A DNA stretch of 64,000 nt from Escherichia coli (lineage in GTDB: Bacteria > Pseudomonadota > Gammaproteobacteria > Enterobacterales > Enterobacteriaceae), in NCBI RefSeq assembly GCF_041248615.1, contig NZ_CP158426.1; one strand, written 5' to 3'. Both the position numbers and the translations under genes were made by a program. Every line of letters begins with the position of its first letter. The stretch's first letter is position 1. The notes under the pieces are model-generated. The model was not told the DNA's origin. It saw nothing but the letters and a program-made list of their open reading frames with translations, and made no database searches. Below, in pieces: positions 32,390 to 55,709 of this stretch.

Positions 32390-33442
32390 ATGGGAATTAG
32401 TGTTCGAGTCTTGCAAGCAAATCATGGTGATTGTTTCTTAGTTAGTTATAAGAGCTCAGATAGTGTTTACAACTTGCTAATTGATGGTGGTAATAGCGCC
32501 ACATTTATGTTTGGGGCTCAAGGGCGCTACAGTGGTGAGCTTAAATGTGTACTCGATGATTTGAAAAAAGAAGGTCAGAAAATTGACTTGGTTATCTTAA
32601 CCCATATAGATGATGATCATATCGGTGGTTTGCTTAGGGCTTTTGAAACACCAGGTTATCTATGCCAAATGGCTTCTTCTATCTGGTTTAATTCTTCAAG
32701 ATTTATCACCAAACATTTTAAGGTTGATGAAATTTCAGACAATGATGTCTGTCTTCAAAGTAACTCAACGCAGACAAGTGCTAGGCAAGGGAAGAAACTG
32801 GAAAACTTACTTGATGAAATCAATTGCGAACGGCAACCCATAGTTATTGCGGGGCAGAAGTTTACAAGGGGTCCGTTCACATTCACGATCTTATCCCCTG
32901 AAGAAGATAATCTACGTAGCCTTCTTCATAAGTGGCCAGATGAGCCAGATCCGGTTACGACATCCGGTGCTTCAAGGGATTATGGAATGAAATTTGAGGA
33001 TATTTTGTCTAATGATAAATTCCAGAGTGATCAATCTGTTTATAATGGTAGCTCAATTGCTTTCATCCTTGAAGCTGATGGTAAGGCTATGCTCTTTTTG
33101 GGCGATTCACATGATGAAAATATTGTCCGTAATTTACGATCTCTTGGTTTTAATGAAGGTAACAAGCTCAAACTCGACCTCGTGAAAATTTCTCATCATG
33201 GTAGCCAGTATAATACTAGCCCTGAATTTTTGTCGCTCATAGATGCGCAAAACTTCATTATATCCACTAATGGGAGTAAGCACGGACTTCCTGATAAGAG
33301 AACTATTGCACGGATTTTATCTTCAGGAGAAGGCAAAATCGGCTTCAATTATTCGCACATTATCCAGGAGATGCTTCACGAAAATGAGGTTCCATTGTAC
33401 TCTTCTCGCCTGGTAGCATTAAATGGAGAAATTAGGCTATAA
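32390..33442 (+). CDS. MBL-fold metallo-hydrolase (first gene of candidate defence operon)
   Basis: Motifs HGDCFLV...IDGG, LVILTHIDDDHIGG and KISHHGS are typical of the metallo-beta-lactamase fold; AGGAAA RBS before ATG 32390; stop overlaps next gene. Confidence 0.7.
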   Translation: MGISVRVLQANHGDCFLVSYKSSDSVYNLLIDGGNSATFMFGAQGRYSGELKCVLDDLKKEGQKIDLVILTHIDDDHIGGLLRAFETPGYLCQMASSIWFNSSRFITKHFKVDEISDNDVCLQSNSTQTSARQGKKLENLLDEINCERQPIVIAGQKFTRGPFTFTILSPEEDNLRSLLHKWPDEPDPVTTSGASRDYGMKFEDILSNDKFQSDQSVYNGSSIAFILEADGKAMLFLGDSHDENIVRNLRSLGFNEGNKLKLDLVKISHHGSQYNTSPEFLSLIDAQNFIISTNGSKHGLPDKRTIARILSSGEGKIGFNYSHIIQEMLHENEVPLYSSRLVALNGEIRL

Positions 33443-34727
33443 AATGACCGCTTCAAATTTGATGGCTTCTAACGCAGTGATCGTGAACGAGGGCAGTGGT
33501 GTTCTTGTTAATGCGATGACTCAAGATTATTCATACGTACTCACAGCAAAACATGTGTTAGCGAAATCAGGTAGTCAAAATATCGTTACTAATCAATATG
33601 GTAACAGTCTTAGAGTGCTTGATGTATTGGTGGGTCAGGAAGAGCATTGCGACTGTGCTGTAATCAAAATTGAATATGTACCAACTGTTGCTCAGCAGTC
33701 CTTCCCTGCAATAGCATTACCCAATTCGGCTTTGCTAAAGTTTGTTGGTTTTCCGGGAACCGAGAGACTAAGCGCTACCCCGCTGAAAATCTATGATGGG
33801 CATGTAACAGATGTAAGGGAGGGGCTGATTAGCTTCACGATAGAAGGCAGTCCCTCAAAAACCGCAATCGATGGAATGTCTGGCGGTGGAATGTATTACA
33901 TAGTTAATGAACATCCCCTCCTTGTTGGTGTAGAATTTGGGATGGACAGTATTCGTCAAGATCTACAATATGGACGTATACAATGTAAAAGTTTAATTGT
34001 TTTTGAAGAGATAATTAATTTAAACAGTGCTGCTCCAATGGTTCCCGCTTATTTGGAGTGTTTTTCACGCTTAAAAGAATATATCTTCGATTTTAATGTT
34101 GTTGATAAAAATAGAGTTCTGAATCTGAAAAACGCATTAAATATTTTTGCAGATGAACTTATAGACAAAGGTATGCCACCACCATTTGAATTAATGTCCA
34201 AATACAAAACTGATTTGTTAGTAGGTCCATATCAAGTTGACGATGTTAAAAATAAAGAATTATGGGTTGCATATTTTGAATTTCTGATAATTTGCGCAAT
34301 TCTTGATAATGTAAGTATTGCCAATAGTTCTTATATAGAAAGTTTAGAGCGGCGTAGGAGAATTCTTTATACTCCGGATGGAAGTAATTGGGTCGGAAAG
34401 CTTGATGTAATCTTAAAAGTTGCTCGAAAGTTATTAGATAAAGATGGCATAGTAATTGTGGCATCTCCAGAAAATGGAGCCGAATTATTACCGGATGATT
34501 TTGAAGTCGATAGGGTTATAAGGAATATTGCGCGAATCGCTAATTCAGGTCCACTTGCTCCTATCGATCAAGTTGAAAAAGAGATGTATAAGAGTTTTGT
34601 ATTAACGCATCTTGAAGGGCTGAGAAAAAAATGTGTTATAAACAAAGAGAGAATGTATGCAGAAGTTGAAGCTGGCTTAGACCAACTTCAGACGTTTAAG
34701 GAAAGCTTTAATGAATTTATTAAATAA
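33423..34727 (+). CDS. Trypsin-like (S1-type) serine protease with C-terminal domain of unknown function (LmuA-like effector?)
   Basis: Candidate catalytic triad in order His (VLTAKHV), Asp (DCAVIKIE), Ser (DGMSGGGMYY); about 230 further residues without recognised motif; start may be 33423 or 33444; overlaps both neighbours. Confidence 0.7.
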   Translation: MEKLGYKMTASNLMASNAVIVNEGSGVLVNAMTQDYSYVLTAKHVLAKSGSQNIVTNQYGNSLRVLDVLVGQEEHCDCAVIKIEYVPTVAQQSFPAIALPNSALLKFVGFPGTERLSATPLKIYDGHVTDVREGLISFTIEGSPSKTAIDGMSGGGMYYIVNEHPLLVGVEFGMDSIRQDLQYGRIQCKSLIVFEEIINLNSAAPMVPAYLECFSRLKEYIFDFNVVDKNRVLNLKNALNIFADELIDKGMPPPFELMSKYKTDLLVGPYQVDDVKNKELWVAYFEFLIICAILDNVSIANSSYIESLERRRRILYTPDGSNWVGKLDVILKVARKLLDKDGIVIVASPENGAELLPDDFEVDRVIRNIARIANSGPLAPIDQVEKEMYKSFVLTHLEGLRKKCVINKERMYAEVEAGLDQLQTFKESFNEFIK

Positions 34728-35262
34728 AGAATTTGATTTGGAATTTCTTAAATCTAGATTTTCTGATGCAGATTTCTATTTTTTTGTTTCTAATGATGAC
34801 TCATCTTATATTTCATGCGTAGCATGCTATTGTGAGAGCGCTAATTACGTGGTTGCGAATTGGACAGCGATTCAGAATTATTTATCTGCTTACTACCAAC
34901 CGAAGGATGAATTAGCTCTTTGGAATATATATTTAGTTTTCTTTTGTTCCGAAAAATTACCGATTTGGGATAAGTACCTTATAGATAATGATAAGTATTC
35001 TGTCAGAAAATTAATTATTGACGGGTTAACTACTCTGCCAAGTATTTCCGAAACTGTAACTTTTCTGAACAATCATCTGCTAGGCGCAGACCTAGAATTA
35101 ACTGAAATAGAGGAGAAGAAGGAGATAGAGTTATCATTAATTGAGTATATAAGTGGAACTCCTTTAGATTCAAAGGTTGAGTCGAGAGATGAGCGTATGA
35201 GCAGAATTGATAAAATTATTAATCTAGTGAGTTCAAATAAAAATGAAAATAAAAAAAGTTGA
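34711..35262 (+). CDS. Small protein (183 aa) of unknown function, translationally coupled (middle component?)
   Basis: ORF overlaps upstream gene by 17 nt and downstream gene by 20 nt; AT-rich; no recognised motif. Confidence 0.5.
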   Translation: MNLLNKEFDLEFLKSRFSDADFYFFVSNDDSSYISCVACYCESANYVVANWTAIQNYLSAYYQPKDELALWNIYLVFFCSEKLPIWDKYLIDNDKYSVRKLIIDGLTTLPSISETVTFLNNHLLGADLELTEIEEKKEIELSLIEYISGTPLDSKVESRDERMSRIDKIINLVSSNKNENKKS

Positions 35263-38200
35263 AATAGAAGGCTTTCGAGCATACAGATTCAAGGAAGATG
35301 GTACTTTCGATTTTACAAATAAAGATGATACGCCATCCAATTTTGTAGCGATCTATGCACCCAATGGCTTTGGAAAAAGTTCATTCTATGATGCGGTTGA
35401 ATGGGCTATTACTCATAATTTAGATAGATTTGCGGGTGAATATAATAAAAAAAATTATGAGCAAGCTGCCAGGAGCACGAAAGAGGACGGTGTTGCACAA
35501 AAAATACTACGTAATAAAGATGTACCAGACAATATTCCTACTCGTGTAACAGTTTTCACTACTTTACCAACTCCATTCGAACAAAGTTTAGGAACAGTTC
35601 GTTCTGATTCTAGAGATATAAGAATCGGCGAGAATAAAAATAAAATCAATGGCTATTTTAGAAAAGTGGTTCTTAGTCAAGATGAAATAGACCGTTTTTT
35701 AAAAGAAGCAAAGCCGCAAGATCGTTATAAGATGTTTATGGAGAGTTTTGGAGGTGAATGGGAAAAGGCGAGACAAGAGCTAACTATACTATTGAATGAC
35801 AATAAGGCGGTTTTGTTAAATCTCGAAAAAAACAAAAATGAACTTCAGGAACAACTAGATCAGCCTGTTGATGCGTCAACATTCATACAATTTAATAAAA
35901 TAGCATCTGAACTTGTAGCAGAAGGTGAAAGTTTACCATTAGTAGATGAAACAACTATAGTTAATACACAGCATGAGCTTTTGGAAAAAATAATCACAAG
36001 AAGTCACGAAATAAATTTTTCCTTAAACAAGAAAAAAATATTGAGAGATTCGATTTCTGAGTATATTTTAAAATTTCCTGATATCAGTTTTCGTACAACC
36101 CAGATTATCGAGAAAAAGAATAGACTAGAAAAAATAAATAAAGGGATAGAAGATGTCGGTCGTTATAAGACATTTCAGTCTACTCTTGAAAAACTGACTA
36201 TCGAAAAGAAAAAGATAAGTCAGAGCTTAAATTTTATAGAAGAATTAGATGGTTTATCCCAAGAGTTTTTAAGCTTGGAATTTAACTTGGAATCAGCTCG
36301 AAAGAAACATAGAGAGATTTCATATAATTATGAAAATGAAAAAACTCTCCTTGATAATTTATTCCAAACAAGAAACCAAAATGATGCTGATTTATCTTCA
36401 ATTGACAAGCGATGCTTATCTATACGTTCTACGTTAGAAAACGCTACGGTTACTTATTCTAATATATCTAATATACAAAATAAAATTTTAAATATAGTTT
36501 CTACGCAAACAGAATTAGAGCACAAACTTAATCAAGTTAGATCCGAATACCAAAAAAACAAATCCGAATTAAACAAAGTATCAGATTTAACAATAACCGC
36601 CAAATCATTACTTTCATCAGACTTAAGTCTAATTGATTTATCTTCAGATTTATTAAAAGAACTAAACAACTTATCGCAAGAACTAAATATATTGGTCCTA
36701 CATGATCAATCAATTCATAACACACAAGAATCTCTTTCTGCACAAATGGGAGTTCACGAACGTCTAATTGCATCGGGCCTTGAGTACTTAAGTTTATGGC
36801 CGACTAATATATGTCCTTTATGTCACAAGCCGCATGACTCTGAGTCCTCTCTTAGAGAACAAGTAACAAATACTGACGTAATATCCATGCTTAGTAAAGA
36901 GAATGCAGCTAAGCTCGAGATATCCTCAAAACGGCGGTCAGAGTTAAATGGCAAGATAGAATCCATCGTACAGAAAGCCCTTGAAATTAAAATGAGTAAA
37001 CTTGAGGTATTAAGTAAAAAGGTCAATCAACAAGGAAATGAGATACATCGAGAAGAACAGCACTATACAGCTCTTTTAGCAGAAAAACAGTCTGTCCAAA
37101 ATCAGTTAAACGAGTTGCAGAAGGCTGTAGCTGGACTAACTAAAGATGAATTATTAGCTCGCTTAGATGCTGAACTTAAAGAATTAGAGGCCAAGAAAAA
37201 TGAAGTGATAAAAAACAAGCTGACCTTGACGAAAAATATTAACGTTAAAAGAACGTTGATTACAGAGTTAAGTGGGGCGATCAATTTACTTAATACGCAA
37301 ATTCATGAAATGATGTCATCATCTAACTATTTAAAAACAAAAGCTTACTCTGAAGAAAATGGCTTGTCATCGGAGTTTTTGAAAGAACATTATGATGATA
37401 AACGCCATTTTTACCTTAAAAATATAAATGGACTCAATTTTGAGATTAATAATATTACCAGCCAATTAAATGATCTTCAGAAAGCTATGATAGCCGATGA
37501 AATGTGGCTGGATTATGAAGAAATGATTTCTGAAAAAGAGAATTTCGAGGATTATATTTCTAAATCAGAAGCGGTTTTACAATCTTATTCATCATTATTA
37601 AAGCAGCATTTTGAACTACCAAAATATGAATCTTTAGTTGAATTGAAAGATTTCCTGATAAGCTCACTTGATAAAGAAACTAGGCTTTATAATGGTCTAG
37701 AGGAACGGCTTGGAAAATATAATTTATTATCAGAACTTTTGAAAACAGCAGAGTCGTTTGTAAAAAGTATTAAGTTGCAGAATGATATTAATGAAACCTT
37801 AGGTCTTATAGAAATAAGAAAAGAAGTTGATTTAGCTCTGACTAAGGAACGAAATCAAGTAATAGAGGAACTTAGAAACTTGATAAAATCTTTCTTTTAT
37901 GAGGAACTCATTAATTCTATTTATAAGAGAATAGATCCACATCCATCACTTAAGAAAGTGGTGTTTCGCCCAGATTTTGACTCATCAGATAAACCTGGTC
38001 TTAATATAGTTGTCAGTGATGAAAAAGGTGATATGGTATCTCCAATATTATTCTTTAGTGCAGCGCAATTAAATATTCTAAGCCTTAGTGTCTTTTTAGC
38101 AAGTGCTTTGCATGCAAAAGATGATAATGGAAATGTAATTGATGTGATTATGATTGATGATCCAATTCAATCAATGGATTCAATTAATATCCTATCCACA

Positions 38201-38380
38201 ATTGATCTTCTTAGAAGTATTACCGTTAGATTCAACAAACAAATAATAATATCAACACATGACGACAATTTCTTTGGCTTGCTCCAACGTAAAATCCCTT
38301 CGGAAATATTGGGTGCCAAGTTTCTTAAATTGGAGAAATTTGGGGTTGTAGTGCCTGTTGATGATTTAAATAATACATGA
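35243..38380 (+). CDS. Rad50/SbcC/SMC-like ABC ATPase with central CxxC zinc hook (LmuB-like?)
   Basis: N-terminal Walker A (VAIYAPNGFGKSSFYD), Q-loop (VLSQDEI), long coiled-coil middle with CPLC at residues 524-527 of 1045 (nt 36812..36823), C-terminal signature-like FSAAQ, Walker B VIMIDDP, D-loop SMD and H-loop ISTHD. Confidence 0.8.
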   Translation: MKIKKVEIEGFRAYRFKEDGTFDFTNKDDTPSNFVAIYAPNGFGKSSFYDAVEWAITHNLDRFAGEYNKKNYEQAARSTKEDGVAQKILRNKDVPDNIPTRVTVFTTLPTPFEQSLGTVRSDSRDIRIGENKNKINGYFRKVVLSQDEIDRFLKEAKPQDRYKMFMESFGGEWEKARQELTILLNDNKAVLLNLEKNKNELQEQLDQPVDASTFIQFNKIASELVAEGESLPLVDETTIVNTQHELLEKIITRSHEINFSLNKKKILRDSISEYILKFPDISFRTTQIIEKKNRLEKINKGIEDVGRYKTFQSTLEKLTIEKKKISQSLNFIEELDGLSQEFLSLEFNLESARKKHREISYNYENEKTLLDNLFQTRNQNDADLSSIDKRCLSIRSTLENATVTYSNISNIQNKILNIVSTQTELEHKLNQVRSEYQKNKSELNKVSDLTITAKSLLSSDLSLIDLSSDLLKELNNLSQELNILVLHDQSIHNTQESLSAQMGVHERLIASGLEYLSLWPTNICPLCHKPHDSESSLREQVTNTDVISMLSKENAAKLEISSKRRSELNGKIESIVQKALEIKMSKLEVLSKKVNQQGNEIHREEQHYTALLAEKQSVQNQLNELQKAVAGLTKDELLARLDAELKELEAKKNEVIKNKLTLTKNINVKRTLITELSGAINLLNTQIHEMMSSSNYLKTKAYSEENGLSSEFLKEHYDDKRHFYLKNINGLNFEINNITSQLNDLQKAMIADEMWLDYEEMISEKENFEDYISKSEAVLQSYSSLLKQHFELPKYESLVELKDFLISSLDKETRLYNGLEERLGKYNLLSELLKTAESFVKSIKLQNDINETLGLIEIRKEVDLALTKERNQVIEELRNLIKSFFYEELINSIYKRIDPHPSLKKVVFRPDFDSSDKPGLNIVVSDEKGDMVSPILFFSAAQLNILSLSVFLASALHAKDDNGNVIDVIMIDDPIQSMDSINILSTIDLLRSITVRFNKQIIISTHDDNFFGLLQRKIPSEILGAKFLKLEKFGVVVPVDDLNNT

Positions 38381-38440: not shown

Positions 38441-39696
38441 ATAGGGGAACCTATTTTTATCGCAATAAATTAAGAGCGAAGATATGGTGAAAATTGTTAA
38501 AATATGAATTTTTTTAATTTTTTATCTAAAGCCCCTGTTTTCATTATCGTATAAATCAATCTGGACGATTTGTTCTTCAGGTGCAAGGGTATCCGCAAAC
38601 TAGCGCAGGCTATCACCGCCTATAAGCTCCAGAATATGATCAAGTCCATGCCCTCCTGACAACCCAATCGCCTGTAATGACCATTCAGGAATGATTTGCT
38701 CTTTTGATGACTCAACCACAAATGTATCGAGCTCAGTCTTTGCTTAGAGCAGAATTTGAGCCCAAGACTTCCACTCGTATCATCGTAGGTCAGCGTTTCT
38801 CAGAAAATAACCCATGTAACCACGGCATCCGTCTCCGAATGTTATCCTAGAAACAATATTGAGGGGGGAATGTAGAATCATAACCTCTGAATTAACGTAG
38901 ATTAAATCATTCGATCTAAATCAGAGCATTCATAGTGATGGTACACTCAGCACCAGACAAAGATCTCTAGGGGTTTGTTCTAATAAACATGGCCCTCATT
39001 CCTTCTGGTGAAATTCGGAATCTGATTGCGTAGGATAATTACATCCAGGAATCGGGCTAGCATTACAGCCCCCTAAGGGTGTTGTTTGCAACGGTTCATG
39101 TTTGTCTGAGTAACTATATTCCTGAATGTGTTGCTCCGAATTTACGGATTGCCTTGCAGAAAAGGGCTGTTCTGGCGTTGTGCTTTGAAAGGCGTACACC
39201 TGAGGAGCACAGAGCCACAGGAAGGGCAGTAGGGTGCAGCGGGCGAGTACATTCATATATTCTCCAGACAGAATTCATACCAATTATATGATATGCCAGA
39301 TTGACTCAATAAAGCGTTAACGAAGAACGAAAATATAAGACCAGGTATAGAACTCGACATGCCGATAGTCGCCGGGAAATATCGTGGCCAGATTTTTTGT
39401 TAATGCTCATAGTCAGGCAACAAGGGTCGCTGCAGTAATGACTTCTGAACCTTATAACAAATTTCGGCACGACACTTTTATCATCTTTTTCATAATAAAA
39501 CCTCCGTTTTTGTTTTAATCGTCCTCCGGATGTTTCGGACATTGGATGCCCGTAACATCCGGAGGCTGCGGGTGCGGGCGGCAAAGAGCCCGTGAAGATG
39601 CCCGGAATGAATGGCAAACCCCCTCAGGAATGAAGAAAATACGCAATCAATGCTGGGGTGCTTTGTTGATCACTTTTACTGAAGTACTTTTCTATC

Positions 39697-40416
39697 TCAG
39701 AAGTAGGTTGTCCAGAAAGAGGAAACTGGCATCGCCAGTACCAATGCAGGAAGCATACTGGCTACCGGGAAGACCTTGATACCGGAAATACGCAGGCCGG
39801 TCGCCACCATTAGAACGCCACCCACAGCTGAAAAGTCGGCCTGCATGGCAGGCGTGGTCAGGGGCAATATATATATCGCGCTGTAGGCGAGTGCTAACTG
39901 AATGATAAGCTGGGGGAAAGCGACTAATGCCACGGCGTAACCCAGGGTTGTGGCAAAAATGAGGGCGGTCAGCAAATCCAGGAACGCTTTCGCGATAAGG
40001 ATACTCGAGTCCCCGGTCATGCCTTCGTGCATCGCACCAAAAATACCGGTGCCACTGGCACAAAAAAGGACGATGATCGCCACATAGTTTTGTAAAAACT
40101 GCGCCTGTGAGTCTTTGTCTCCGGGATCGCTTTTCACGACGAGCTCCACCAACCCACGGGCTTGTCCGCCCAGGTGGCTTATCCCTTTTTCCAGATAGCA
40201 GAGCTCGCCCACCAGTGTGCCGAGAAGGACCGATAGAACCATGACGGGCATATGGCTGACACTTGTCACAAGGACGATCCCCATACACAGGGAGGCAGCA
40301 CCAAAAATGAGCGGCATTGAGGTACGTAACCTTTCAGGTAGACGTGAGCTAATGATGGCTCCTGCCATCCCGCCGATCACGACGGCAGAGCCGTTGAACC
40401 ATGGGCCTGTAATCAT
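39697..40416 (-). CDS. Multi-pass inner-membrane protein (DUF554-like?), co-operonic with UbiX/UbiD-like genes
   Basis: 239-aa very hydrophobic ORF; start overlaps stop of upstream UbiX-like gene (40413..40416). Confidence 0.55.
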   Translation of the reverse strand: MITGPWFNGSAVVIGGMAGAIISSRLPERLRTSMPLIFGAASLCMGIVLVTSVSHMPVMVLSVLLGTLVGELCYLEKGISHLGGQARGLVELVVKSDPGDKDSQAQFLQNYVAIIVLFCASGTGIFGAMHEGMTGDSSILIAKAFLDLLTALIFATTLGYAVALVAFPQLIIQLALAYSAIYILPLTTPAMQADFSAVGGVLMVATGLRISGIKVFPVASMLPALVLAMPVSSFWTTYF

Positions 40417-41027
40417 AGCGATTTACTCCTGTTATTCAGGTTGGGAGTTTCACCCCAGCGCGGCAATGTGTCGCAATCAAGGTCGAGTAAACTCAGCGCC
40501 CGCGCAACACTATGAGCGAAGATGTTCTCAGTACTTGCAGGGCGTGCATACCAGGCAGGTACGGGTGGAAAAATGATGCCGCCGGTTTCGGTAACCTGAA
40601 GCATGTTACGAAGGTGCCCGGTATGCAGCGGCGTTTCCCGTACCATCAGAACCAGCCTCCGGCGCTCTTTCAGGGTCACATCGGCTGCCCGCACCAGCAA
40701 ACTGTTGGTTAAGCCCGCCGCAACAGCGGCGAGGGTGTTCATAGAGCAGGGGACAATCAACATCCCGGATGCCCTGAACGAACCGCTGGCGATGTCGGCT
40801 GCAATATCATCAAAGGGATAAATTACATCAGCCAGCTTATGAACGTCGTCTTCTGACAAAGTGGTTTCCAGACTGCGGGTCAGATGAGCGGCAGGAGAAA
40901 TCACAACGTGACTTTCCACGTTAAGTTGTCGCAGATAACGCAGGGCCTGCACTCCATATAAAAAACCGGATGCACCACTGATCCCAATGATGACGCGCTT
41001 GCGAGGAGAACATTCAGATGTCGACAT
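40413..41027 (-). CDS. UbiX/Pad1-family flavin prenyltransferase (prenyl-FMN synthase)
   Basis: 204-aa ORF with flavoprotein signature (VIIGISGASG...PCSMNTLAAVAAGLTNSLLVRAADVTLKERRRLVLMVRETPLH). Confidence 0.85.
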   Translation of the reverse strand: MSTSECSPRKRVIIGISGASGFLYGVQALRYLRQLNVESHVVISPAAHLTRSLETTLSEDDVHKLADVIYPFDDIAADIASGSFRASGMLIVPCSMNTLAAVAAGLTNSLLVRAADVTLKERRRLVLMVRETPLHTGHLRNMLQVTETGGIIFPPVPAWYARPASTENIFAHSVARALSLLDLDCDTLPRWGETPNLNNRSKSL

Positions 41028-41037
41028 TATGGCGTCC

Positions 41038-42522
41038 TCAGTACTTGAAGTTATCCGGGAGGAAACGACTGATCTCGACCTCCATGAATTCGCTGCGGCG
41101 AAACTGGCCTTTCATCGTGAACGGAACGGTACAGTCGAAAATAGTTTTACAGGCGATCCCGTGGTCGCGGACGGAGTAACTAAAAGCCGGGTCAGAGGAC
41201 GGATCGAGGGGATGGCACCTTACGCCGGGTATGAACACCGTGCTGATATCCCCCTGATAGCGTGTCGTCATTGCCCATATCACGTCATTGAGATCGAAAA
41301 TATCCACATCGTCATCAACCAGAATCACATGCTTGAGTTCCGAGAATGCGGAGAAGGCCAGAAGAGCCGCCTGGCGCTGACGACCTTCATCGTTTGGCAG
41401 ACGTTTTTTCACCTGCAATACGGCAAGATATTTTCCGGTCCCGGGTGACGGGCAGTGAACATTTTGCACAAAGCCGGGAAGGGCGCGCTCCACCAGTTGC
41501 AGAATACTGGCCTCGGTGGGGATCCCTGCCATATTGGTATGCTCGTCACTTGGACCAATGCAGGTCTGTAGAATTGGGTGACGGCGGTGGGTGATGGCTT
41601 TCACTTTTATCACTGGCACCATTTGCTGTGCCTGTCCGGTATAGCCGGGGAATTCCGGCATGGCTTTACCACTGTTGGTATTTTGATCCTCCCTGACCCG
41701 ATAGTTAGGAATGAGTTCCCCCTCGATAACGACTTCGGCGTTCGCAATGGCCCGGGCATTCACGGTCAGACACTGGCACAGCTCAACAGGCTGTTTACGC
41801 AAGCTCCCTGCCACTGACAGTTCGTCAAAACCAAGTGGAGTTGTGGGCGGTTCGAAGCAGGCACCGATTTCAATGGCTGGGTCAACACCAATGCTGATCG
41901 AGATGGGAAGTGGGGCCCCATCTTCCTCTGCTTTCTGACGGAACAAATCCAGATGCCGACCGGGAACGAAGTACATGGATATTTCATCCCTGTTTTGCAC
42001 GCACAGTCGGTGAATAGTGATGTCATGCTCGCCGGTATGTGGATCGGCGGCGTAGCACATACCGAGAGTGAAGTAAGGACCGGCATCCTCCGGCGTATTC
42101 GTGGGTGCTGGCAGGATATTGAGGATACTGAAATCCGGATCGGATGCCAGATGGACTACTTCCTGACAGACGGCATTTTCCTGCGGAATAACGACAGGAC
42201 TTATCGGGGTGCTTACCGCGTCTTTCAGTAAAAAGGCCAGCTTATCGGGTGTGGTATCCAGTAGCCGGGCCACGCGTTTTCGCGAGGCGAGAAGACCTAT
42301 CAGCACTCGCATATCGGTATAGCCTTTAATCCGGTTAAAGAGCATGGCTGGACCGATACGAGTCGGACGCATGACCGTACCGTGTGCCCCAATGTAGCGG
42401 TACACCCCTGACAGTTCTGCACTTGGATCAACGGGTTCATCGGTTTCGATAAGCTCATCATCAAACTTGCGCAGTACGGCCAGCGCACTGCGTAGGTCAG
42501 TCACTTTTTGTGTTTGAGACAT
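41038..42522 (-). CDS. UbiD-family (prenyl-FMN-dependent) decarboxylase
   Basis: 494-aa ORF with UbiD-family architecture; immediately upstream of the UbiX-like partner. Confidence 0.85.
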   Translation of the reverse strand: MSQTQKVTDLRSALAVLRKFDDELIETDEPVDPSAELSGVYRYIGAHGTVMRPTRIGPAMLFNRIKGYTDMRVLIGLLASRKRVARLLDTTPDKLAFLLKDAVSTPISPVVIPQENAVCQEVVHLASDPDFSILNILPAPTNTPEDAGPYFTLGMCYAADPHTGEHDITIHRLCVQNRDEISMYFVPGRHLDLFRQKAEEDGAPLPISISIGVDPAIEIGACFEPPTTPLGFDELSVAGSLRKQPVELCQCLTVNARAIANAEVVIEGELIPNYRVREDQNTNSGKAMPEFPGYTGQAQQMVPVIKVKAITHRRHPILQTCIGPSDEHTNMAGIPTEASILQLVERALPGFVQNVHCPSPGTGKYLAVLQVKKRLPNDEGRQRQAALLAFSAFSELKHVILVDDDVDIFDLNDVIWAMTTRYQGDISTVFIPGVRCHPLDPSSDPAFSYSVRDHGIACKTIFDCTVPFTMKGQFRRSEFMEVEISRFLPDNFKY

Positions 42523-42698
42523 TACGTTTTCCTCAGTAAGTCGCCGGGAGACAGCATGCCCGGTGTGCTTTTATCTTCATCCTGCAGGCAATCACAGGAC
42601 GAGCCGTTACATCACTGACAGTATGTGAGGCAACATAAATCCCCGTCTAATCACATTAACGACGTTTTTAATGTGGGATTGTTATCGAAAAATAGTGA

Positions 42699-43592
42699 TT
42701 GGAGGAACGTGTGGACTATCGGTATTTGCATGCATTTGTGGTGCTTGCCAGAGAACTGCATTTTGGAAAAGCCGCACTGCGGCTCAACATCACGCAGCCA
42801 GCCTTAAGCCGTCAGATTAGAGTGCTGGAAGATCAGCTTGGCATGGTGCTATTTACGCGTGATCGTCGTCATGTGGCGCTGACTGTGGAAGGAACTCAGC
42901 TTGCAGCGGAGGCGCGGAGCGCCGTCAGTCATTACGAAAAAATGCTGAGCCGTGCGAGTAGCCTTCGAAAAGGCTATAAAGGACAACTCATACTGGGTTA
43001 TGTCGGATCTTCCATTCTTGATCCCGCCCTGACACGGTTAATCACCTGTTTTCGCGAGACTAAACCGGATGTTGAGATTGTTATTGAGGAGCACAACGTT
43101 GACGAACAGCTCACCCTCCTGCTCGACCATCAACTGGATATGGGGCTGCTCCGATCGCCTGTTCCGCATTTTGCCAACCTGGACTACGTGGATATCGCCA
43201 CCAGGTCACTCATCGCCGCAGTACCGCACACGCATCCGCAGGCAGGAGTCGGTAAAATAGAGCTGGAGACGTTGTCCGGGGATACATTTATGATCCAGAA
43301 AGATCCGCCCGGGGTCGGGCTAGGCTGGTCTGCATTACATGCCTGTGAGATGGCCAGTTTTGTCCCACCCAAAATCTATTTTACTCGCGATGTTGCGGTG
43401 GCTATTGGCATGGTGTCGATGGGAATAGGAGTTACGCTGGTGCCAGAAACCCAGCGTTCTGTAACGTTGCCTAATGTCTGCTACTGCCTGCTGCACGATC
43501 CCGAGGTCACAACGACCTTAACGCTTTGCTGGCCGAAATTCAGGAAAAGCAGGGAATTGATAGAGTTTGTACGCTCTTTAACGCTTGGTTGA
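42699..43592 (+). CDS. LysR-family transcriptional regulator, divergent from the decarboxylase operon
   Basis: N-terminal LysR HTH (FGKAALRLNITQPALSRQIRVLEDQLG) plus substrate-binding domain; divergent arrangement typical of LysR regulators. Confidence 0.8.
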   Translation: MEERVDYRYLHAFVVLARELHFGKAALRLNITQPALSRQIRVLEDQLGMVLFTRDRRHVALTVEGTQLAAEARSAVSHYEKMLSRASSLRKGYKGQLILGYVGSSILDPALTRLITCFRETKPDVEIVIEEHNVDEQLTLLLDHQLDMGLLRSPVPHFANLDYVDIATRSLIAAVPHTHPQAGVGKIELETLSGDTFMIQKDPPGVGLGWSALHACEMASFVPPKIYFTRDVAVAIGMVSMGIGVTLVPETQRSVTLPNVCYCLLHDPEVTTTLTLCWPKFRKSRELIEFVRSLTLG

Positions 43593-44133
43593 ATCTTAAG
43601 AAGCTGCAGTTGAGTCATAGCCAGCGATCAAAATTGAGAAGACAAAACCGGGGAGAGGTGCCCGCAGTTTCTGCCCCAGCTCCCATCTTCAGGAAGATGT
43701 GTTTCAGGAATGCATTCGTGATGCTGGGGATAGCGGCAAGACGATTTTCTCATCGGGTAACTCTGCGGTATCGGAACAGTTGACGACGGCAGGGTGGTGA
43801 ATGGGAACCTCAGGATGAAGCGCTCGGGCAAGAGGGATGGACTGTGCTGAAGAGAACACTGACAGAACGAGCATGATGCTTGCAAAAAGGGGACTCTGGA
43901 TATTCATTGTTTATCTCCTGATGATATTCATCGCTCCAGAGAATACGCTTGCCACTCTTTTTATTTGTTTTCCTGAATTAAAAATGCCCGGTTTTATGTG
44001 GTTCTTCCGTAAACGTTATTACATTAATTAACATCTAGTTTCTATCTCCGAAATGAGGTAAAAAAATAATTGTCGTGGTTTTTATCAAACAAATTTACCG
44101 GCAGCTCAGATCCGAACTAATACCTGGAAATTC

Positions 44134-44182
44134 AAACCCCAAACCCCAAACCCCAAACCCCAAACACCAAACCCCAAACACC
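44134..44182. repeat. Heptanucleotide microsatellite (AAACCCC/AAACACC) x7
   Basis: Direct reading: aaacccc x4, aaacacc, aaacccc, aaacacc; opposite strand is G-rich (GGGGTTT)n. Confidence 0.95.
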
Positions 44183-44412
44183 ATTTCACCGCTGGCGTGT
44201 AAGGGGCTCTATATCTGTTTATTCAGGGATAGTTTTTTCTCCCGTGTGATTTCCGTTCATGTATCTGCTTCCGGTTAATCGTTTCCCAGCACAACCCGTC
44301 CCGCAAGGGTAAATGGCACGCCTGCTGCGCCCTTGCGGGATGGAACGATGCCGGGAAAGCGAACCGTCAGGCGATACGAAGACGAAAATCACACCACTGA
44401 CGGAGAAAAAAA

Positions 44413-45357
44413 ATGACTATGTCCCTGCATACCAAGATAAGTGCCCCTAACACGACAGCGGCGACCAGCGTATCCTCGCTGGATCTGTCAGGCTCCTCAA
44501 AAACGAAATGTTCAACAGCCAGAACCGATATTTATCAGACTGTTACCGACAGCATAATTGCGGCGCTGGAAACCGGAGTAAAACCTTGGGTGTGTCCTTG
44601 GCAGCGAGCTCCCGGTATGTCCGGTTTACCGTCCAATTACGCCACTGGTAAGGCTTACAGCGGAATGAATATCATGTTGCTTTGGTGCAGCGCGTCAAAA
44701 CAGGGATTCTGTGATTCACGCTGGATGACCTACAAACAGGCAAAAGCGGTAGGTGGGCAGGTGCGCAAGGGAGAACACGGCACTACCGCGATTTTCTATA
44801 CCACGCTGGAAAAGGAAAATGATAACGGAGAAACTGACTATATTCCTATGCTGAAAGCATTCACTGTGTTTAATGTTGAACAAATTGACGGTTTACTCCT
44901 GAGTGATGATGCCGTTTTTCCGGCAGAGATCTTTGAGCCATTACCACGTGCAGAAGCACTTTTTCGTAGTAGCGGTGCAACCATTATTGAAAAAGGACAG
45001 AATGCTTTTTTTACACCATCAACCGACGAAATTCGCTTACCTGAACGGTATCTTTTTATTGATGCTGCTAATTTCTACGCAACCGGCCTGCATGAGCTCG
45101 TTCACTGGAGTGGGGCAAAAAGTCGGCTGAACCGTGAAATGAAAGGGAAATTTGGCAGCGAGGGGTATGCGTTTGAAGAGTTGATCGCTGAGCTGGGGAG
45201 CGCATTCCTGATGGCGGATCTGGGGATAGTTGGAGAAGTTCTGCATGACAGTTATATCGCTTCCTGGCTTAAAGCACTGAGGAATGATAAACGCTATATT
45301 TTCAAGGCCGCCAGCGCGGCATCGAAAGCACATCGCTATTTGATGGATAAAAGCTGA
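44413..45357 (+). CDS. ArdC-like anti-restriction protein (N-terminal ssDNA-binding domain plus HExxH metalloprotease-like domain)
   Basis: 314-aa ORF; HELVHW motif in the C-terminal half; architecture and size fit ArdC/DUF1738 proteins of conjugative elements. Confidence 0.6.
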   Translation: MTMSLHTKISAPNTTAATSVSSLDLSGSSKTKCSTARTDIYQTVTDSIIAALETGVKPWVCPWQRAPGMSGLPSNYATGKAYSGMNIMLLWCSASKQGFCDSRWMTYKQAKAVGGQVRKGEHGTTAIFYTTLEKENDNGETDYIPMLKAFTVFNVEQIDGLLLSDDAVFPAEIFEPLPRAEALFRSSGATIIEKGQNAFFTPSTDEIRLPERYLFIDAANFYATGLHELVHWSGAKSRLNREMKGKFGSEGYAFEELIAELGSAFLMADLGIVGEVLHDSYIASWLKALRNDKRYIFKAASAASKAHRYLMDKS

Positions 45358-46200
45358 GTAGCAAAAAGCCGCAAAGGAATGCGGCTTAATGGGCTGGGGG
45401 TACTAAACCAGTAAAGGTTTAGTCAGTAATATTAGTGAAGCAGAGCAAGTATCGAACAGTCATATTCCTGTAGTGGTATTAAGACAACCTTAAGAAGGGA
45501 CTGATGTATAGCTACTCTTGTATACCCATCCATGGAAAATTCGGTTGTATTGCCGGGTTGATATGTGCAGGTTGGTCCCGACCCAAGAAGTTTTTACTGT
45601 GAAAATTGTCAAACTATATCAATGTGGTAACAGCTTCTCTTGTCCCTTTGGTTATTTCAAATTGGACCGGGCTATCTGTTGCAACACGGTTGCTCTGCTT
45701 GAAACAGAGTTAACATATGCAACATCAGATACTTTGAGTTTGATCAGATCATAGCCTCGTAGCTTACTGTCCAAGGTCATATTGAACAGAGTTAAATCGC
45801 GCATTTTACCTTCCATTTCAAGCCTGATTCGGATCCCCCCTGATATGAGATATCTGAAGTGGTCTTTTTGGTCAGTGATACTTACAATACGGTCTTTGTC
45901 CCACGGTGACGTGTTCATACTCAAAGCTCCTGTAATGTTGGAGATTTGAGCATGGTTATCCCTCATGAGCGAGGAACGGACAATGTCCCTTGCGCGATCC
46001 AAGATTGATTTTTCTTATTAAATTAAGCTATGGCTGACCTACGAACGATAGGCAAAATGCTCCTAAAGCTACGGCTTATGACAGTAAAAAACATATTGAT
46101 AAAAATCTGAGCTGGTTTAGAATGCTATAATGGAATAATTATTTATTTTCGGCCTTCAGTTTGATCATTTTTAGAAATCACCCTTTTGAAGGAATCTACA

Positions 46201-46995
46201 ATGGAATCAGAAGAAACGAAAGAAGAGAGTTATCAACAGCGTTCGGAGTTTATCAGAAAAATAATTCAACAGCCTGTTGAGGGTGTCATATCTTCATGCA
46301 CTATACCAAAAAAAATAATTCAATTTTGGGATTCATCCAATACTATCCCTAATGATGTCAGACATTGCATGAAATCATGGCGTATCTTAGAACCTTTTGG
46401 GTATGAGTATTTACTATATGATTTCGTTAGCGCCCAAGAATTTATTAAACATAATTTGGGTGAAACATACAGTGAAGCTTTTGCCAAGTGTACTCATCCT
46501 GCTATGCAATCAGATTATTTCCGATTATGTTATATCTCGGTAAACGGGGGATTTTATGTTGACACTGATGATGTTTATCTGGGTAGTGAGATAAGTAGTT
46601 TTTTCACGGATGATAAGTTAAAAATACAACCTTTATGCTACGATATTTCCACCGATTCTATGATTCCACCAGAAATTTTTACAAAGGAAAATACTTATGA
46701 AGAATCTTGGATTTTTTATTTCAACAACAACCCGTTAATTGCTCCGCCTCATCATGTTATCATTGATAAGGCACTAGAGCAATCCACATACTTACTTAAT
46801 AAATCAAGCTATCCTCTCACAGATATTCAGTCAACAACTGGTCCTGGTAATCTATCTAAATCTATTTTCTCGTGTCGCGAGGAAATAGATTTATTATCCC
46901 AGATTACGGTAGTATCAAACTGGCAAGATATTGCAGAAACTAAGTGGGATTTAGAATACAGAGCTGATTCTAGAAATTGGCGCTTGATGAATTAA
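46201..46995 (+). CDS. DXD-motif glycosyltransferase (Gly_transf_sug-like)
   Basis: QFWDS...AMQSDYFRLCYISVNGGFYVDTDDV motif pattern; GAAGGAA RBS before ATG 46201 (track start 46186 is TTG); AT-rich. Confidence 0.55.
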   Translation: MESEETKEESYQQRSEFIRKIIQQPVEGVISSCTIPKKIIQFWDSSNTIPNDVRHCMKSWRILEPFGYEYLLYDFVSAQEFIKHNLGETYSEAFAKCTHPAMQSDYFRLCYISVNGGFYVDTDDVYLGSEISSFFTDDKLKIQPLCYDISTDSMIPPEIFTKENTYEESWIFYFNNNPLIAPPHHVIIDKALEQSTYLLNKSSYPLTDIQSTTGPGNLSKSIFSCREEIDLLSQITVVSNWQDIAETKWDLEYRADSRNWRLMN

Positions 46996-47010
46996 CATGG
47001 ATTTTTAATA

Positions 47011-49212
47011 ATGAACATTAAAAATAATTTGAAAGGTATTAGCCGTTTTTTTTATTCTTTTTACTTACGCTCTCGGTTACTTCTCCCAGCGCAAAAATCA
47101 TCGACCTTTAATACATTAAATCAGAATGAAGGCGTTATTAGCAGGATTTACGCTATAAACTTAGAACGGGAAGCGATTAGATGGGCAGATTTAAATAAAG
47201 AACTGGGTAAAATACTAGATAAATCTAATAAAAAATTAACGAGCCAATTAACCAGATTCTCTGCTATAAACGCCAAAGAAATGTCAGACATTCTCAATGA
47301 GGAAGAGGTTATTCCTTATTATACTTTAGCAGACCAGTTGTACGTTGACCCTCAACCAAAAATCTTACCCGATAAATTTGATCTCGATGTCCCTATAAAA
47401 ATGAGTAAAGCGGAAATTGCTGTAGCATTATCGCATCTAAATGTTATTAGGCTTGTTGCAGAAGGTTCTGATGCATATGCTTTAGTGCTTGAGGATGACG
47501 TGTATTTTGAAAGAGATTTTGCCAAAACCTTAGATGCTGCTTGGTCTGAAATGATTCAAGCTGACAGATCTTCACCTGGTTTTGATATCTTATATTTGTC
47601 ATTTAAAGAGGTTATGAATGGCGCGAAAAAGAAAATTATTTCGAAAAGCATATTTAAACCAGAGCGAGGGTTATGGTATTTTTCAGGATATGTATTATCT
47701 AAGAAAGGAGCAAATAAAATCCTCTCACTCCTCCCAACTTATGGACCAATTGACTTATGGATAAATCATCAATTTGAGAAACTCGATGTGAGGGCAGTAT
47801 ATAAGTCGATCATTTCTCAGAGGTTGGATTTTAACTCTTCAAATTCCTATTCAATATTACCTACCTTAGTGAAGATTGGTATTATTGACAATGAAAAAGC
47901 TTCCAGTTTTAATGAACTTCCAAATTATTGGCCTGTTTTTGCATTTGGTGTAAGTGGTTCGGGTATTTCTTCTTTGGGTATGGCACTATCAATGCTTGGC
48001 TATAAGTGTTGTAGTGATATTGATAGACTTCCCAATGCAGACTTAAAAAATCTATTAAGTAATTCAGAGCAGAATGAATTCAATGCTTATGTAAATGTTG
48101 GCTGTCTCAGTAAGTATATCGGCATATTAAAAAAACAATATCCAAAAGCAAAATTTATAATTACCACGAGTGAATCAAAAGAAATCGAAGATGTTATTTT
48201 TAATATAATTGAGGAGATCGTTGATACTGACTATGTTGTATTGCATTCAGATGAAAAAAACAAATGGAAGGTTATATGTGAATACCTTCAATGCCCACCA
48301 CCTATTTCAGCGTACCCAGAAATGGCTGACATTATTCCTAGGCAGATTATAGATATCACCAGTGCAGCACAAATCAATAATTCAGAAATTAACATGATAC
48401 ATGACATTTCCCCTTGGATATTAGAAAGAAAGAATTTTTCAGGAAATGGTTTTTTTATAAAAGATAATCCGAAGAGAATTGAAAAAGAGCTTGCTGATTT
48501 CTTCATTAATGATTCACTACAAAATATTAATAATAACTATTGGGAAATTCGCGATGATACTTTCCCTGGAAATCTTGGACTGTTTCGACCTCAAAATGTG
48601 ATTCAAAATGATATTAGTGGTTTAGGTCTTGTAGTTAAGGAGGAACAGTTAGGCGTTAGAGAGTTTAGTGCTGCTGCGATTTCAAGTAGAATGAAGTTCC
48701 TATATGGCCGATTTGAAGTGTCCCTACGAGCGGCAAATGTTGCAGGGATAGTAACCGGCTTCTTTTTACATAGAGATTCGCCTCGTCAAGAAATCGATAT
48801 TGAGTTTGTTGGAAATCGATCTGATCATATGTTGATCAATGTTTTTTATAATCCTGGTGATGAAGGTGCAAAGTTTGATTATGGATATCGTGGTACACCA
48901 ACTCTTATTCCTTTAGGTTTTGATGCTTCTGAAGAGTTTCATGATTACATGATTGAATGGAGTCCTGATGAGATAAAATGGTTTGTGGATGGAGTTATGG
49001 TTTATCGTAGAGGAGTTTGGGGGCCTACACCTATACCTCATTTACCCATGACCCTTCATGCTAACACTTGGCCAACCCGTTCCAAGGAACTGGCGGGACG
49101 TCTCCACACGCGTTCCTTACCCTGTATCACTTATATTAGGAAAATATGTATTGATGCAACAATGGATGTTAATAATCCAAAATTAAATGACCAGACAGTA
49201 GTGGCTGGTTAA
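47011..49212 (+). CDS. Multidomain protein: N-terminal GT25-like glycosyltransferase, central P-loop-like region, C-terminal GH16-like domain
   Basis: N-terminal YAINLEREAIRWADL...LSHLNVIRL resembles family-25 LPS glycosyltransferases; C-terminal EIDIEFVG matches the GH16 ExDxxE catalytic motif; AT-rich. Confidence 0.5.
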   Translation: MNIKNNLKGISRFFYSFYLRSRLLLPAQKSSTFNTLNQNEGVISRIYAINLEREAIRWADLNKELGKILDKSNKKLTSQLTRFSAINAKEMSDILNEEEVIPYYTLADQLYVDPQPKILPDKFDLDVPIKMSKAEIAVALSHLNVIRLVAEGSDAYALVLEDDVYFERDFAKTLDAAWSEMIQADRSSPGFDILYLSFKEVMNGAKKKIISKSIFKPERGLWYFSGYVLSKKGANKILSLLPTYGPIDLWINHQFEKLDVRAVYKSIISQRLDFNSSNSYSILPTLVKIGIIDNEKASSFNELPNYWPVFAFGVSGSGISSLGMALSMLGYKCCSDIDRLPNADLKNLLSNSEQNEFNAYVNVGCLSKYIGILKKQYPKAKFIITTSESKEIEDVIFNIIEEIVDTDYVVLHSDEKNKWKVICEYLQCPPPISAYPEMADIIPRQIIDITSAAQINNSEINMIHDISPWILERKNFSGNGFFIKDNPKRIEKELADFFINDSLQNINNNYWEIRDDTFPGNLGLFRPQNVIQNDISGLGLVVKEEQLGVREFSAAAISSRMKFLYGRFEVSLRAANVAGIVTGFFLHRDSPRQEIDIEFVGNRSDHMLINVFYNPGDEGAKFDYGYRGTPTLIPLGFDASEEFHDYMIEWSPDEIKWFVDGVMVYRRGVWGPTPIPHLPMTLHANTWPTRSKELAGRLHTRSLPCITYIRKICIDATMDVNNPKLNDQTVVAG

Positions 49213-49490: not shown

Positions 49491-50342
49491 TCAGGAGGCA
49501 TAAACTGAAAGGAGTTCTTTAGCTGCCAATTGACCAAGTGCGTTGGCTGCAAAAGGACTGTCACCTGTCAGTACCTTACGATCTTTGTATACGCTTCCTT
49601 TAATATCATCATTAACAATATTCATCCCCATTTGCTTAAGTGCATCGCCAAAATACCATGTGAGATGGCCCGGCATATAACCAATGTCAGGCGTCTGCTT
49701 ATCAGCTGAATCAGGGAAAGCGCAAATAGAATACTCTTTTAGAGGGTTTTCACCATTGCGCAGCGAAAGGAATGCTGCTGGGCCATGGCAAAGGGATATG
49801 ACGAAGCGGTCATTGTCCATGAACCAGCGAAGAGTATCGGCTACTGCGCTGCTTTCTGGCAGCCCAATCAGTGCGCCGTGGCCACCAGGAATAAACACGG
49901 CAGCATATTCACTTTGCTTGTTCAGGCTATTCAATACATCAGACAATTTTTCAGGATTTTGGAACTTGTCTCTATACCGGCTGAAAAATGGCATAACTTT
50001 CTCATCCTTGTGCGGCATGGCCCAGTATTCGAACTTTGTCATGTAACCTGAGATTGTCGCAATGTCAAAATCAAAACCAGCAGCATGCAGGTGATACATT
50101 GGAATAAGCGTTTCAACAGGATGGTTTCCCGTTGAGAACAGAGCCCCGCTATCAGTCATCAGGTAACGCTCATCCGCAGCGATGACCAGCACCTTCTTCC
50201 CTCCCATGCACTGTTTGGGATAGTCGTAGTCACTAAGGTCAGATACGGGGCTGGTAAACTGACTAAGGGAATAGTCAGAGGGGAAAAATGCGTTTTCTTC
50301 AGCATGATCCACTTTCGGATGTTTACTTTTATCATTTGTCAT
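49491..50342 (-). CDS. HchA/Hsp31-like glyoxalase (DJ-1/PfpI family), island-borne paralog
   Basis: ORF 49491..50504; start placed at ATG 50342 (MTNDKSKHPKVDHAEENAFFPSDYSLSQFTSPVSDL...), 283 aa, strongly resembling recalled E. coli HchA including ...SLCHGPAAF...; the longer ORF reads into the IS2 end. Confidence 0.85.
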   Translation of the reverse strand: MTNDKSKHPKVDHAEENAFFPSDYSLSQFTSPVSDLSDYDYPKQCMGGKKVLVIAADERYLMTDSGALFSTGNHPVETLIPMYHLHAAGFDFDIATISGYMTKFEYWAMPHKDEKVMPFFSRYRDKFQNPEKLSDVLNSLNKQSEYAAVFIPGGHGALIGLPESSAVADTLRWFMDNDRFVISLCHGPAAFLSLRNGENPLKEYSICAFPDSADKQTPDIGYMPGHLTWYFGDALKQMGMNIVNDDIKGSVYKDRKVLTGDSPFAANALGQLAAKELLSVYAS

Positions 50343-52342: not shown

Positions 52343-53098
52343 TTAAATTTGCATTGAGGTAGCGATATCGAGACGTTGCAGTTCGTCAATCGTGTAGATG
52401 CGGAACACATTCCTGTGGCGGGTTTCCAGTGGGATGTGTTGATGATTCACGATGACGTACTGGATGCTGTCAAACAGCCGTTCAAGACCGAGTTTTTTTT
52501 GCGGGTCTGGCACAATATAAAAAACGTAGATCCAGTCTTTACGCGTTCGGGCCAGTAAATGACTGGCTATGATCGACTGGTAACGGGCTTTGGTTTTCAG
52601 ATGGCGCTCGGTCTCGATGGCGATCACCGTGCCGCTGGGGAGGGCAATTAGCCCGTCCGGGCGGTGACTGACCTGATAACGACTCAGGAAAGTTGTGCGA
52701 TCGCCATGTATCCAGCCGCATGCGCCTTTTTTTTCGAGGATGATCCGCGCCATCTGATTATCAAGGTGATGTTCCAGCGTCCAGCCTGTGAGTTTTGAAG
52801 GCTCAAACCGGGCCGGGAAAATTTCATCATCAGGCTGTATTACGACCGCCAGCCCGTCGTTGGTTATTCCCCACAATGAAATTTTCTTCGTACGTGATAC
52901 CAGGACGTGTTTTTGTATTAACCCCATTCCCTCAACTTTTGAAAGCAGGGAATACAGTGATTTATGATCCCTGAAGCCGAACAGCAGCATCAGTGTTGTA
53001 AAATCACTGTACGTTTCTTCTTTCAGGAAATTCAGCAGTCGTATTATCTTCTCGCGATGTCGGGTCTGGCGCTCGCGGTATGCGGTGATAAGCATCAT
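52343..53098 (-). CDS. Hypothetical wHTH-containing protein adjacent to T4CP gene (relaxosome/replication-relaxation-like?)
   Basis: 251-aa ORF immediately downstream of the coupling protein gene; N-terminal segment looks like a winged helix; possible PD-(D/E)xK-like RPDG...IAIETERHLK; family not confidently recognised. Confidence 0.35.
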   Translation of the reverse strand: MMLITAYRERQTRHREKIIRLLNFLKEETYSDFTTLMLLFGFRDHKSLYSLLSKVEGMGLIQKHVLVSRTKKISLWGITNDGLAVVIQPDDEIFPARFEPSKLTGWTLEHHLDNQMARIILEKKGACGWIHGDRTTFLSRYQVSHRPDGLIALPSGTVIAIETERHLKTKARYQSIIASHLLARTRKDWIYVFYIVPDPQKKLGLERLFDSIQYVIVNHQHIPLETRHRNVFRIYTIDELQRLDIATSMQI

Positions 53099-53106
53099 TT
53101 CCCCTT

Positions 53107-55633: not shown

Positions 55634-55709
55634 GCCAGAAATTAGCCAGCCTCAACCCCGCCGTCTGTCAGTCTGTGGCGCTGTGAGGCATAGTGTAATG
55701 TCCGGTGGT

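Follow-up and report, generated by a model that had tools for sequence, protein, structure and literature searches.

AroY, a UbiD-family decarboxylase of Enterobacter cloacae and Klebsiella pneumoniae (PDB 5NY5, 5O3N, 5O3M), is the closest described counterpart of an enzyme encoded on the 64,000-nucleotide stretch of Escherichia coli DNA analysed in this study (NZ_CP158426.1; the whole stretch is referred to as the window). The enzyme belongs to a four-gene cassette at positions 39697-43592, which also encodes a UbiX-type flavin prenyltransferase, a membrane protein of the DUF554 family and a divergent LysR-type regulator. AroY of E. cloacae (EcAroY) acts as a decarboxylase on protocatechuate and, at a slightly lower rate, on gallate, though not on 2,3,4-trihydroxybenzoate; simple phenols are not carboxylated by it, and activated AroY is oxygen-labile, with a half-life of 5-8 min in air (PMC5656893). 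Its activity is abolished by mutation of Arg188, His327, Lys363, His436 or Glu289, and the same holds for an arginine close to the carboxylate of the substrate, given in print as Arg181 (Payer et al., PMC5656893). For Arg188, His327, Lys363 and His436, a role in gripping both neighbouring hydroxyls of the substrate has been proposed (PMC5656893). The accession number of E. cloacae aroY (ADF61496) lies far from those of its B and D helper genes (ADF63617 and ADF63615), which suggests that aroY occupies a separate locus.

Three other systems invite comparison. In Lactobacillus plantarum, lpdC is followed by the gene of a gallate-induced transporter (lp_2943, gacP), and gallate decarboxylation has been proposed to generate a proton motive force (PMC4600210). 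The VdcBCD, EcdBCD, BsdBCD and ShdBCD operons apply UbiD and UbiX chemistry to phenolic acids, specifically 4-hydroxybenzoate or vanillate, and need a small D subunit. Finally, the UbiD and UbiX proteins of ubiquinone biosynthesis in E. coli belong to the same two families as the window proteins and use the same cofactor, whereas their substrate is a membrane-bound polyprenylated benzoate and their genes are core genes rather than mobile ones.

The locus in the window is probably a self-contained mobile cassette for the non-oxidative decarboxylation of protocatechuate and likely also gallate, equipped with a putative DUF554 carrier and a putative LysR switch. Its features are as follows.

39697-40416, minus strand: DUF554 polytopic membrane protein, 239 amino acids (aa) (Pfam PF04474)
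40413-41027, minus strand: UbiX flavin prenyltransferase, a prenylated flavin mononucleotide (prFMN) synthase, 204 aa (NCBIfam and PDB matches)
41038-42522, minus strand: UbiD-family, AroY-type decarboxylase, 494 aa (Pfam, PDB phmmer search, residue conservation)
42523-42710, unstranded: predicted divergent promoter/operator region, 188 bp (inverted repeat, conservation)
42711-43592, plus strand: LysR-type transcriptional regulator, 293 aa, GTG start (Pfam HTH_1 and LysR_substrate)
39523-39565, minus strand: candidate 3' end hairpin with a perfect 12-bp stem and a 19-nt loop, read from the sequence

The decarboxylase carries the three domains UbiD_N, UbiD and UbiD_C (55.9, 178.9 and 113.8 bits, against Pfam cut-offs of about 24), the same architecture as AroY, which is 495 aa long. 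Amongst solved structures, the best phmmer matches were AroY of E. cloacae (682 bits) and of K. pneumoniae (677 bits), the former aligned end to end over residues 6-492 with an E value of 1e-204. HmfF (236 bits), phthaloyl-CoA decarboxylase (158 bits) and E. coli UbiD (120 bits) followed. Full-length identity to EcAroY and to the K. pneumoniae enzyme (KpAroY) is 60% in each case. Because the enzyme scores 682 bits against AroY and only 120-130 bits against ubiquinone UbiD, it can be regarded as a substrate-specific phenolic-acid decarboxylase, as the sequence-only reading had held. Clustering with ubiquinone UbiD, which would have refuted that reading, was not seen, and the reading is essentially right, narrowed to the AroY type as against the VdcBCD type discussed below.

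Conservation of the active site points the same way. R172, E290, R189, H328, K364 and H437 of the window enzyme are identical to R171, E289, R188, H327, K363 and H436 of AroY; the printed Arg181 was mapped to R171, since alignment position 181 was not an arginine as read here. A further four AroY positions, N140, H170, H189 and E233, are presumably metal or cofactor ligands. None of the ten positions varies across 85 aligned sequences, comprising the window decarboxylase, EcAroY, KpAroY and 82 homologues from 80 genomes. As with AroY, no D subunit is encoded alongside. The AroY-type class and substrates of the enzyme can be assigned with good confidence; 3,4-dihydroxybenzoate (protocatechuate) and gallate are its likely substrates, which would give catechol and pyrogallol respectively.

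The 80 nearest genomic relatives of the decarboxylase, 66-99% identical, are spread over many phyla. The closest are from Citrobacter (99%) and Yokenella (97%), followed at 80-85% by Rahnella, Rouxiella, Pantoea, Pluralibacter, Klebsiella grimontii, Erwinia and Tatumella, and at 67-75% by Xanthomonadales, Aeromonas and many Bacillota including Sedimentibacter hydroxybenzoicus. EcAroY is no more than 64% identical to any of these relatives, and neighbour-joining leaves EcAroY and KpAroY on branches outside the group formed by the window decarboxylase and its 80 nearest relatives. On the basis of this branching and the low identity to EcAroY, the window enzyme is placed in a sister subfamily of the characterised AroY, outside the Ec/Kp clade. 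Databases label members of the subfamily '3,4-dihydroxybenzoate decarboxylase' or 'gallate decarboxylase subunit C', which are names and not tests. A protein named LpdC was not among the best 120 matches of a homologue search seeded with the Sporolactobacillus protein, and LpdC is likened to the window enzyme here by the description of its system, not by sequence.

An additional arrangement was seen in S. hydroxybenzoicus (locus L040) and in a related metagenome-assembled genome (MAG; locus L043), where the AroY-type gene is 68% identical to that of the window. At a distance of 3-5 kb there are a UbiX gene and another, only remotely similar UbiD homologue (28%), and two phenolic-acid decarboxylases therefore appear to be clustered in this anaerobe.

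All four open reading frames (ORFs) at 39697-43592 are intact, and RefSeq annotates the same four genes in an identical E. coli record. Together with the Pfam and NCBIfam matches, this bears out the earlier description of a prenyl-FMN synthase, a UbiD-family decarboxylase and a polytopic membrane protein set divergently to a LysR regulator. Between the UbiD stop and the UbiX start there are 10 nt, and the stop codon is overlapped by a ribosome-binding site, GAGGA; the UbiX and DUF554 genes overlap by 4 nt (ATGA, a junction of -4 nt) downstream of an AGGAG. With such junctions, the UbiD, UbiX and DUF554 genes almost certainly form a single transcript. The translational coupling that had been claimed for all three genes applies to the UbiX/DUF554 overlap, whereas the 10-nt gap between UbiD and UbiX represents tight packing rather than coupling in the strict sense. 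About 130 nt 3' of the DUF554 stop, the candidate hairpin (CCTCCGGATGTT ... AACATCCGGAGG) lacks a T-run and lies just beyond the segment common to Yokenella. A promoter and terminator scan of the cassette gave nothing exceeding shuffle expectation. Further along, an unannotated 86-aa ORF at 38996-39256 (minus strand) has a signal-peptide-like start and is intact in Citrobacter gillenii (91% aa identity) and E. coli A38 (84% aa identity); it is probably not a conserved gene, given that its amino acid identity between strains falls short of the region's nucleotide identity.

The four-gene cassette is a rare, horizontally acquired island cargo, as the sequence-only reading had proposed, given the few E. 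coli carriers, the neighbouring ArdC and type IV secretion genes and the copies found in other genera and on a plasmid. It occurs in five of 5426 complete E. coli genomes, two of the five being assemblies of one strain, and the window copy is 100% identical to that of E. coli strain NRZ14408. The cassette-bearing island adjoins yeeJ and shiA on the E. coli chromosome and contains copies of insertion sequence IS3, a defence locus, ArdC, an integrase remnant, glycosyl transferase and hydrolase genes, a copy of hchA and conjugation genes. The G+C content of the cassette is about 52%, compared with 32-35% in the flanking segments. E. coli A38, from rock-wallaby faeces, shares the cassette and ArdC (38892-45518) as one conserved block of 6.7 kb at 94% identity, situated in a differently composed island adjoining ldtA. 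The segment common to C. gillenii, whose cassette is 96-99% identical, is 38989-44104 (95.7% DNA identity), while Yokenella regensburgei has exactly the four genes in common with the window (39588-43601, 90%) and an Enterobacter hormaechei plasmid carries the same four at 79%. The carriers found came from human samples, manure and rock-wallaby faeces. It may also be mentioned that the Yokenella cassette adjoins a tRNA-Asn gene and orthologues of cbl and nac (L003 5647-5796 and 3386-5378), a part of the chromosome in which E. coli carries islands.

A working model of the cassette can be put forward from these components. The LysR protein would sense protocatechuate or gallate, bind the conserved dyad region beside its own start and activate the operon. 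DUF554 would import the acid anion, export the phenol or both, possibly exchanging anion for neutral phenol. UbiX would make prFMN for the AroY-type enzyme, so that the cassette would not depend on the prFMN levels of its host. The AroY-type enzyme would convert protocatechuate to catechol and CO2, and gallate to pyrogallol and CO2, consuming a cytoplasmic proton. E. coli is not known to break down catechol or pyrogallol as a rule, and these products would consequently leave the cell. The system would work best in the low-oxygen gut because of the oxygen lability of activated AroY.

Compared with L. plantarum, the window shares a UbiD-type enzyme for 3,4-di- or trihydroxybenzoates, a UbiX partner and an adjacent transporter candidate, the L. 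plantarum transporter being substrate-induced. The two differ in that the transporter of L. plantarum is described as a protein of the ion transporter superfamily rather than DUF554, and in that L. plantarum possesses an LpdD chaperone and has its genes distributed over two loci. Compared with AroY, the window enzyme travels with its own UbiX, a membrane protein and a regulator. A niche-specific detoxification function was suggested earlier for the cassette; an energy or pH benefit of decarboxylation is an equally good reading of the locus, and relief of weak-acid stress or energy conservation may more plausibly be the advantage than detoxification in the classical sense. By analogy with gallate decarboxylation in L. 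plantarum, a gain in proton motive force could result, another possible benefit being relief of stress from phenolic or other acids. Dietary flavonoids and tannins are broken down in large part to protocatechuate and gallate, and a mobile cassette of this kind could alter the way in which a rare lineage of E. coli tolerates or exploits a diet rich in plants. For enzymologists, it offers an AroY homologue that brings its own prFMN synthase.

The regulator contains HTH_1 (72.2 bits) and LysR_substrate (95.9 bits) domains, and no NCBIfam equivalog (AlsR, HcaR, PcaQ, BenM and others) reached its cut-off for this protein. Translation more likely starts at GTG 42711, the RefSeq start, which follows a GGAGGAA Shine-Dalgarno sequence by 4 nt, than at TTG 42699, the mechanical ORF start. 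Divergent LysR homologues (49-98% identity) accompany the cassette in around 15 Enterobacterales loci; outside these loci the LysR gene is absent or swapped, for example for MerR or IclR. A LysR-type regulator, TanR, is also part of the gallate system of L. plantarum. The intergenic region holds a perfect inverted repeat, CACATTAA-N8-TTAATGTG, at 42652-42675, overlapped by a T-N11-A motif at 42672-42684. The block beside the lysR start is the only strongly conserved intergenic part across 10 Enterobacterales loci, with GATAA-N7-TTATC as its Pantoea version. This inverted-repeat block is the putative site of the LysR regulator and lies where one would be expected. A consensus promoter scan of the intergenic region (42523-42710) found nothing, which fits an activator-dependent promoter and proves nothing. 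Substrate-responsive activation of the operon by LysR is favoured, with rather less assurance than the class of the enzyme.

The membrane protein matches DUF554 (PF04474) with an E value of 1e-59 and 201.7 bits, against a gathering score of 25.1, over profile positions 1-219 of 220. In 33 of the 80 species genomes, the AroY-type gene is directly adjoined by a DUF554 homologue (48-99% identity); these 33 come from Enterobacterales, Xanthomonadales, Aeromonadales, Burkholderiales, Neisseriales, one alphaproteobacterium and several Bacillota orders. The gene order UbiD-UbiX-DUF554 is that of the Proteobacteria (Enterobacterales, Xanthomonadales, Aeromonas, Tolumonas, Aquitalea, an Oxalobacteraceae MAG and an alphaproteobacterial MAG), and UbiD-DUF554-UbiX that of the Bacillota (Desulfosporosinus, Peptococcaceae, Negativicutes and Paenibacillaceae). 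UbiX is missing from the UbiD-DUF554 pairs of K. grimontii, K. spallanzanii, Phytobacter, Rahnella bonaserana and some Bacillota. As the adjacency outlasts rearrangement, phylum boundaries and loss of UbiX, DUF554 appears to be tied to the decarboxylase or its substrate and not to cofactor synthesis. This steady pairing of AroY and DUF554 is the only fresh, modestly novel element of the locus, the remaining enzyme system being already known, and it is the most specific functional clue found for DUF554. Current understanding is not overturned by the cassette, which is an ordinary mobile addition to a known enzyme system.

In this light, DUF554 is somewhat more probably than otherwise a small secondary carrier, putatively of the acid, the phenol or both. 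The chief competing view, that DUF554 has an unrelated membrane role, as a channel for ions or other solutes or in product efflux only, with the acids entering by diffusion or through host transporters, is less probable. The family is uncharacterised, with no functional study found in literature searches for DUF554 and yqgA, and 47 of the 80 related loci are without it. The commonest neighbours in those loci were LysR (14), UbiX (12), MerR (10) and LpdD-like PAC_bac (9), and a few have other transporters in its stead, namely Na_sulph_symp (3) and CitMHS (2), which speaks for the carrier reading. Three DUF554 representatives of the 50%-identity clusters (35-43% identical) had no UbiD or UbiX homologue on their contigs, all of which are only 1-2 kb long; representatives at this clustering level gave 2216 matches in a library of 1.84 billion proteins. 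An AlphaFold model built from 86 diverse sequences (predicted local distance difference test score 95.7, predicted template modelling score 0.89) is confident and all-helical, with broken helices around a conserved SGTGIFGA...GxTGD segment. No significant Foldseek match to the model was obtained in the PDB; the best and only standout was BbZIP, a ZIP metal-ion transporter, at a weak E value of 0.56. A transporter as the nearest fold speaks for the carrier reading, while one for metal ions would not suggest aromatic acids. Likewise, no sequence-profile link led from DUF554 to any solved structure, and comparison of the N- and C-terminal halves by hhalign detected no internal repeat (probability below 2%). 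Against the channel or efflux alternative stand the adjacency to the decarboxylase across phyla despite reordering and UbiX loss, the ATGA overlap, which fixes co-expression, and the established pattern of decarboxylase and carrier pairs (PMC4600210).

The carrier role can be extended, as a tentative proposal, to the view that AroY-linked DUF554 proteins constitute an unrecognised family of hydroxybenzoate or phenol carriers, which together with the decarboxylase would form a precursor/product exchange cycle generating proton motive force. If so, the cassette would serve in polyphenol-rich guts as a transferable module for energy and acid stress, and DUF554 would gain its first functional anchor. 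The family includes E. coli YqgA, which we take to be its K-12 member. A fifth same-strand gene, of about 515 aa and of NosD/beta-helix type, was observed just 3' of DUF554 in the Pantoea, Rouxiella and Sodalis cassettes (L005 9945-11486, L007 10027-11583 and L011 9820-11373, respectively) and is not present in the window.

It is improbable that the enzyme is of the VdcBCD/EcdBCD/BsdBCD type, acting on 4-hydroxybenzoate or vanillate to give phenol or guaiacol, although this was the analogy drawn in the sequence-only reading and VdcC (NF041204) was indeed the top NCBIfam model by score for the decarboxylase. That score of 455 bits falls below the cut-off of 650, and against the solved VdcC structure (7ae4) the decarboxylase scored 108 bits, compared with 682 for AroY. 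The UbiX protein shows a similar pattern, reaching 223.8 bits with the VdcB model (NF041206, cut-off 290) while passing the UbiX models NF004685 (241 bits, cut-off 188) and TIGR00421 (213.9 bits, cut-off 108.9); its PDB matches were PAD1 and UbiX structures. The obligatory D-subunit gene is absent from the cluster, where junctions of 10 and -4 nt leave no space for it, and the small flanking ORFs considered as D subunits (39306-39617, 38996-39256 and those around 43628-43907) matched no Pfam family. LpdD-like PAC_bac genes do occur in nine of the related loci that lack DUF554. Furthermore, the enzyme retains every catechol-binding residue of AroY, the residues in contact with two neighbouring hydroxyls, and EcAroY did not carboxylate simple phenols (PMC5656893).

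Even less likely is that the AroY-type enzyme mainly carboxylates, or belongs to a biosynthetic or anaerobic catechol pathway, instead of removing dietary phenolic acids. UbiD enzymes are reversible, some anaerobes (Desulfosporosinus and Sedimentibacter, for instance) have homologues, and EcAroY can carboxylate catechol and pyrogallol when bicarbonate is very high; in vitro, however, this needed 3 M bicarbonate or 30 bar CO2 (PMC5656893), and neither the cassette nor its conserved flanks contain downstream genes for catabolism or biosynthesis. That the locus holds a spare UbiD/UbiX pair serving ubiquinone or menaquinone biosynthesis is hardly credible in spite of the family membership of both proteins, as the decarboxylase scored 130 bits against the ubiquinone UbiD equivalog (NF008175, cut-off 788), 165 bits against the menaquinone decarboxylase model (cut-off 496) and 120 bits against E. 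coli UbiD structures, and the cassette is absent from 5421 of the 5426 E. coli genomes.

Several other segments of the window carry cargo of their own. Directly left of the cassette, 32390-38380 encodes a ComEC/Rec2-like protein, two 'ABC-three component system' proteins and a 1045-aa SMC-like ATPase that matches PADLOC LmuB (PDLC03865) with 895 bits, indicating a Lamassu-type anti-phage locus of about 32-34% G+C; E. coli A38 has other defence genes at this position. On the right, the ArdC anti-restriction protein (44413-45357), with ArdcN and zincin-like metallopeptidase domains, moves with the cassette in A38. A degraded integrase (45517-45918) precedes a separate cargo at 46201-49212, consisting of a family 32 glycosyltransferase and a 733-aa family 16 glycosyl hydrolase at 34% G+C. 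The copy of hchA (glyoxalase III) inside the island (49491-50342) is flanked by IS3 and is 95% conserved in the A38 island. The conjugative backbone of the element, 52343-64000, encodes MobC, a type IV coupling protein and components of a VirB-type secretion system, namely VirB9, VirB10, VirB11, TrbM, a Cag12-like protein and EexN, and extends past the end of the window. At the opposite end there are three tRNA-Asn genes (965-1040, 3374-3449 and 5198-5273). After the third come a frameshifted integrase and the core protein of an Rhs element (10735-14916), which form a second, degraded island (965-15521).

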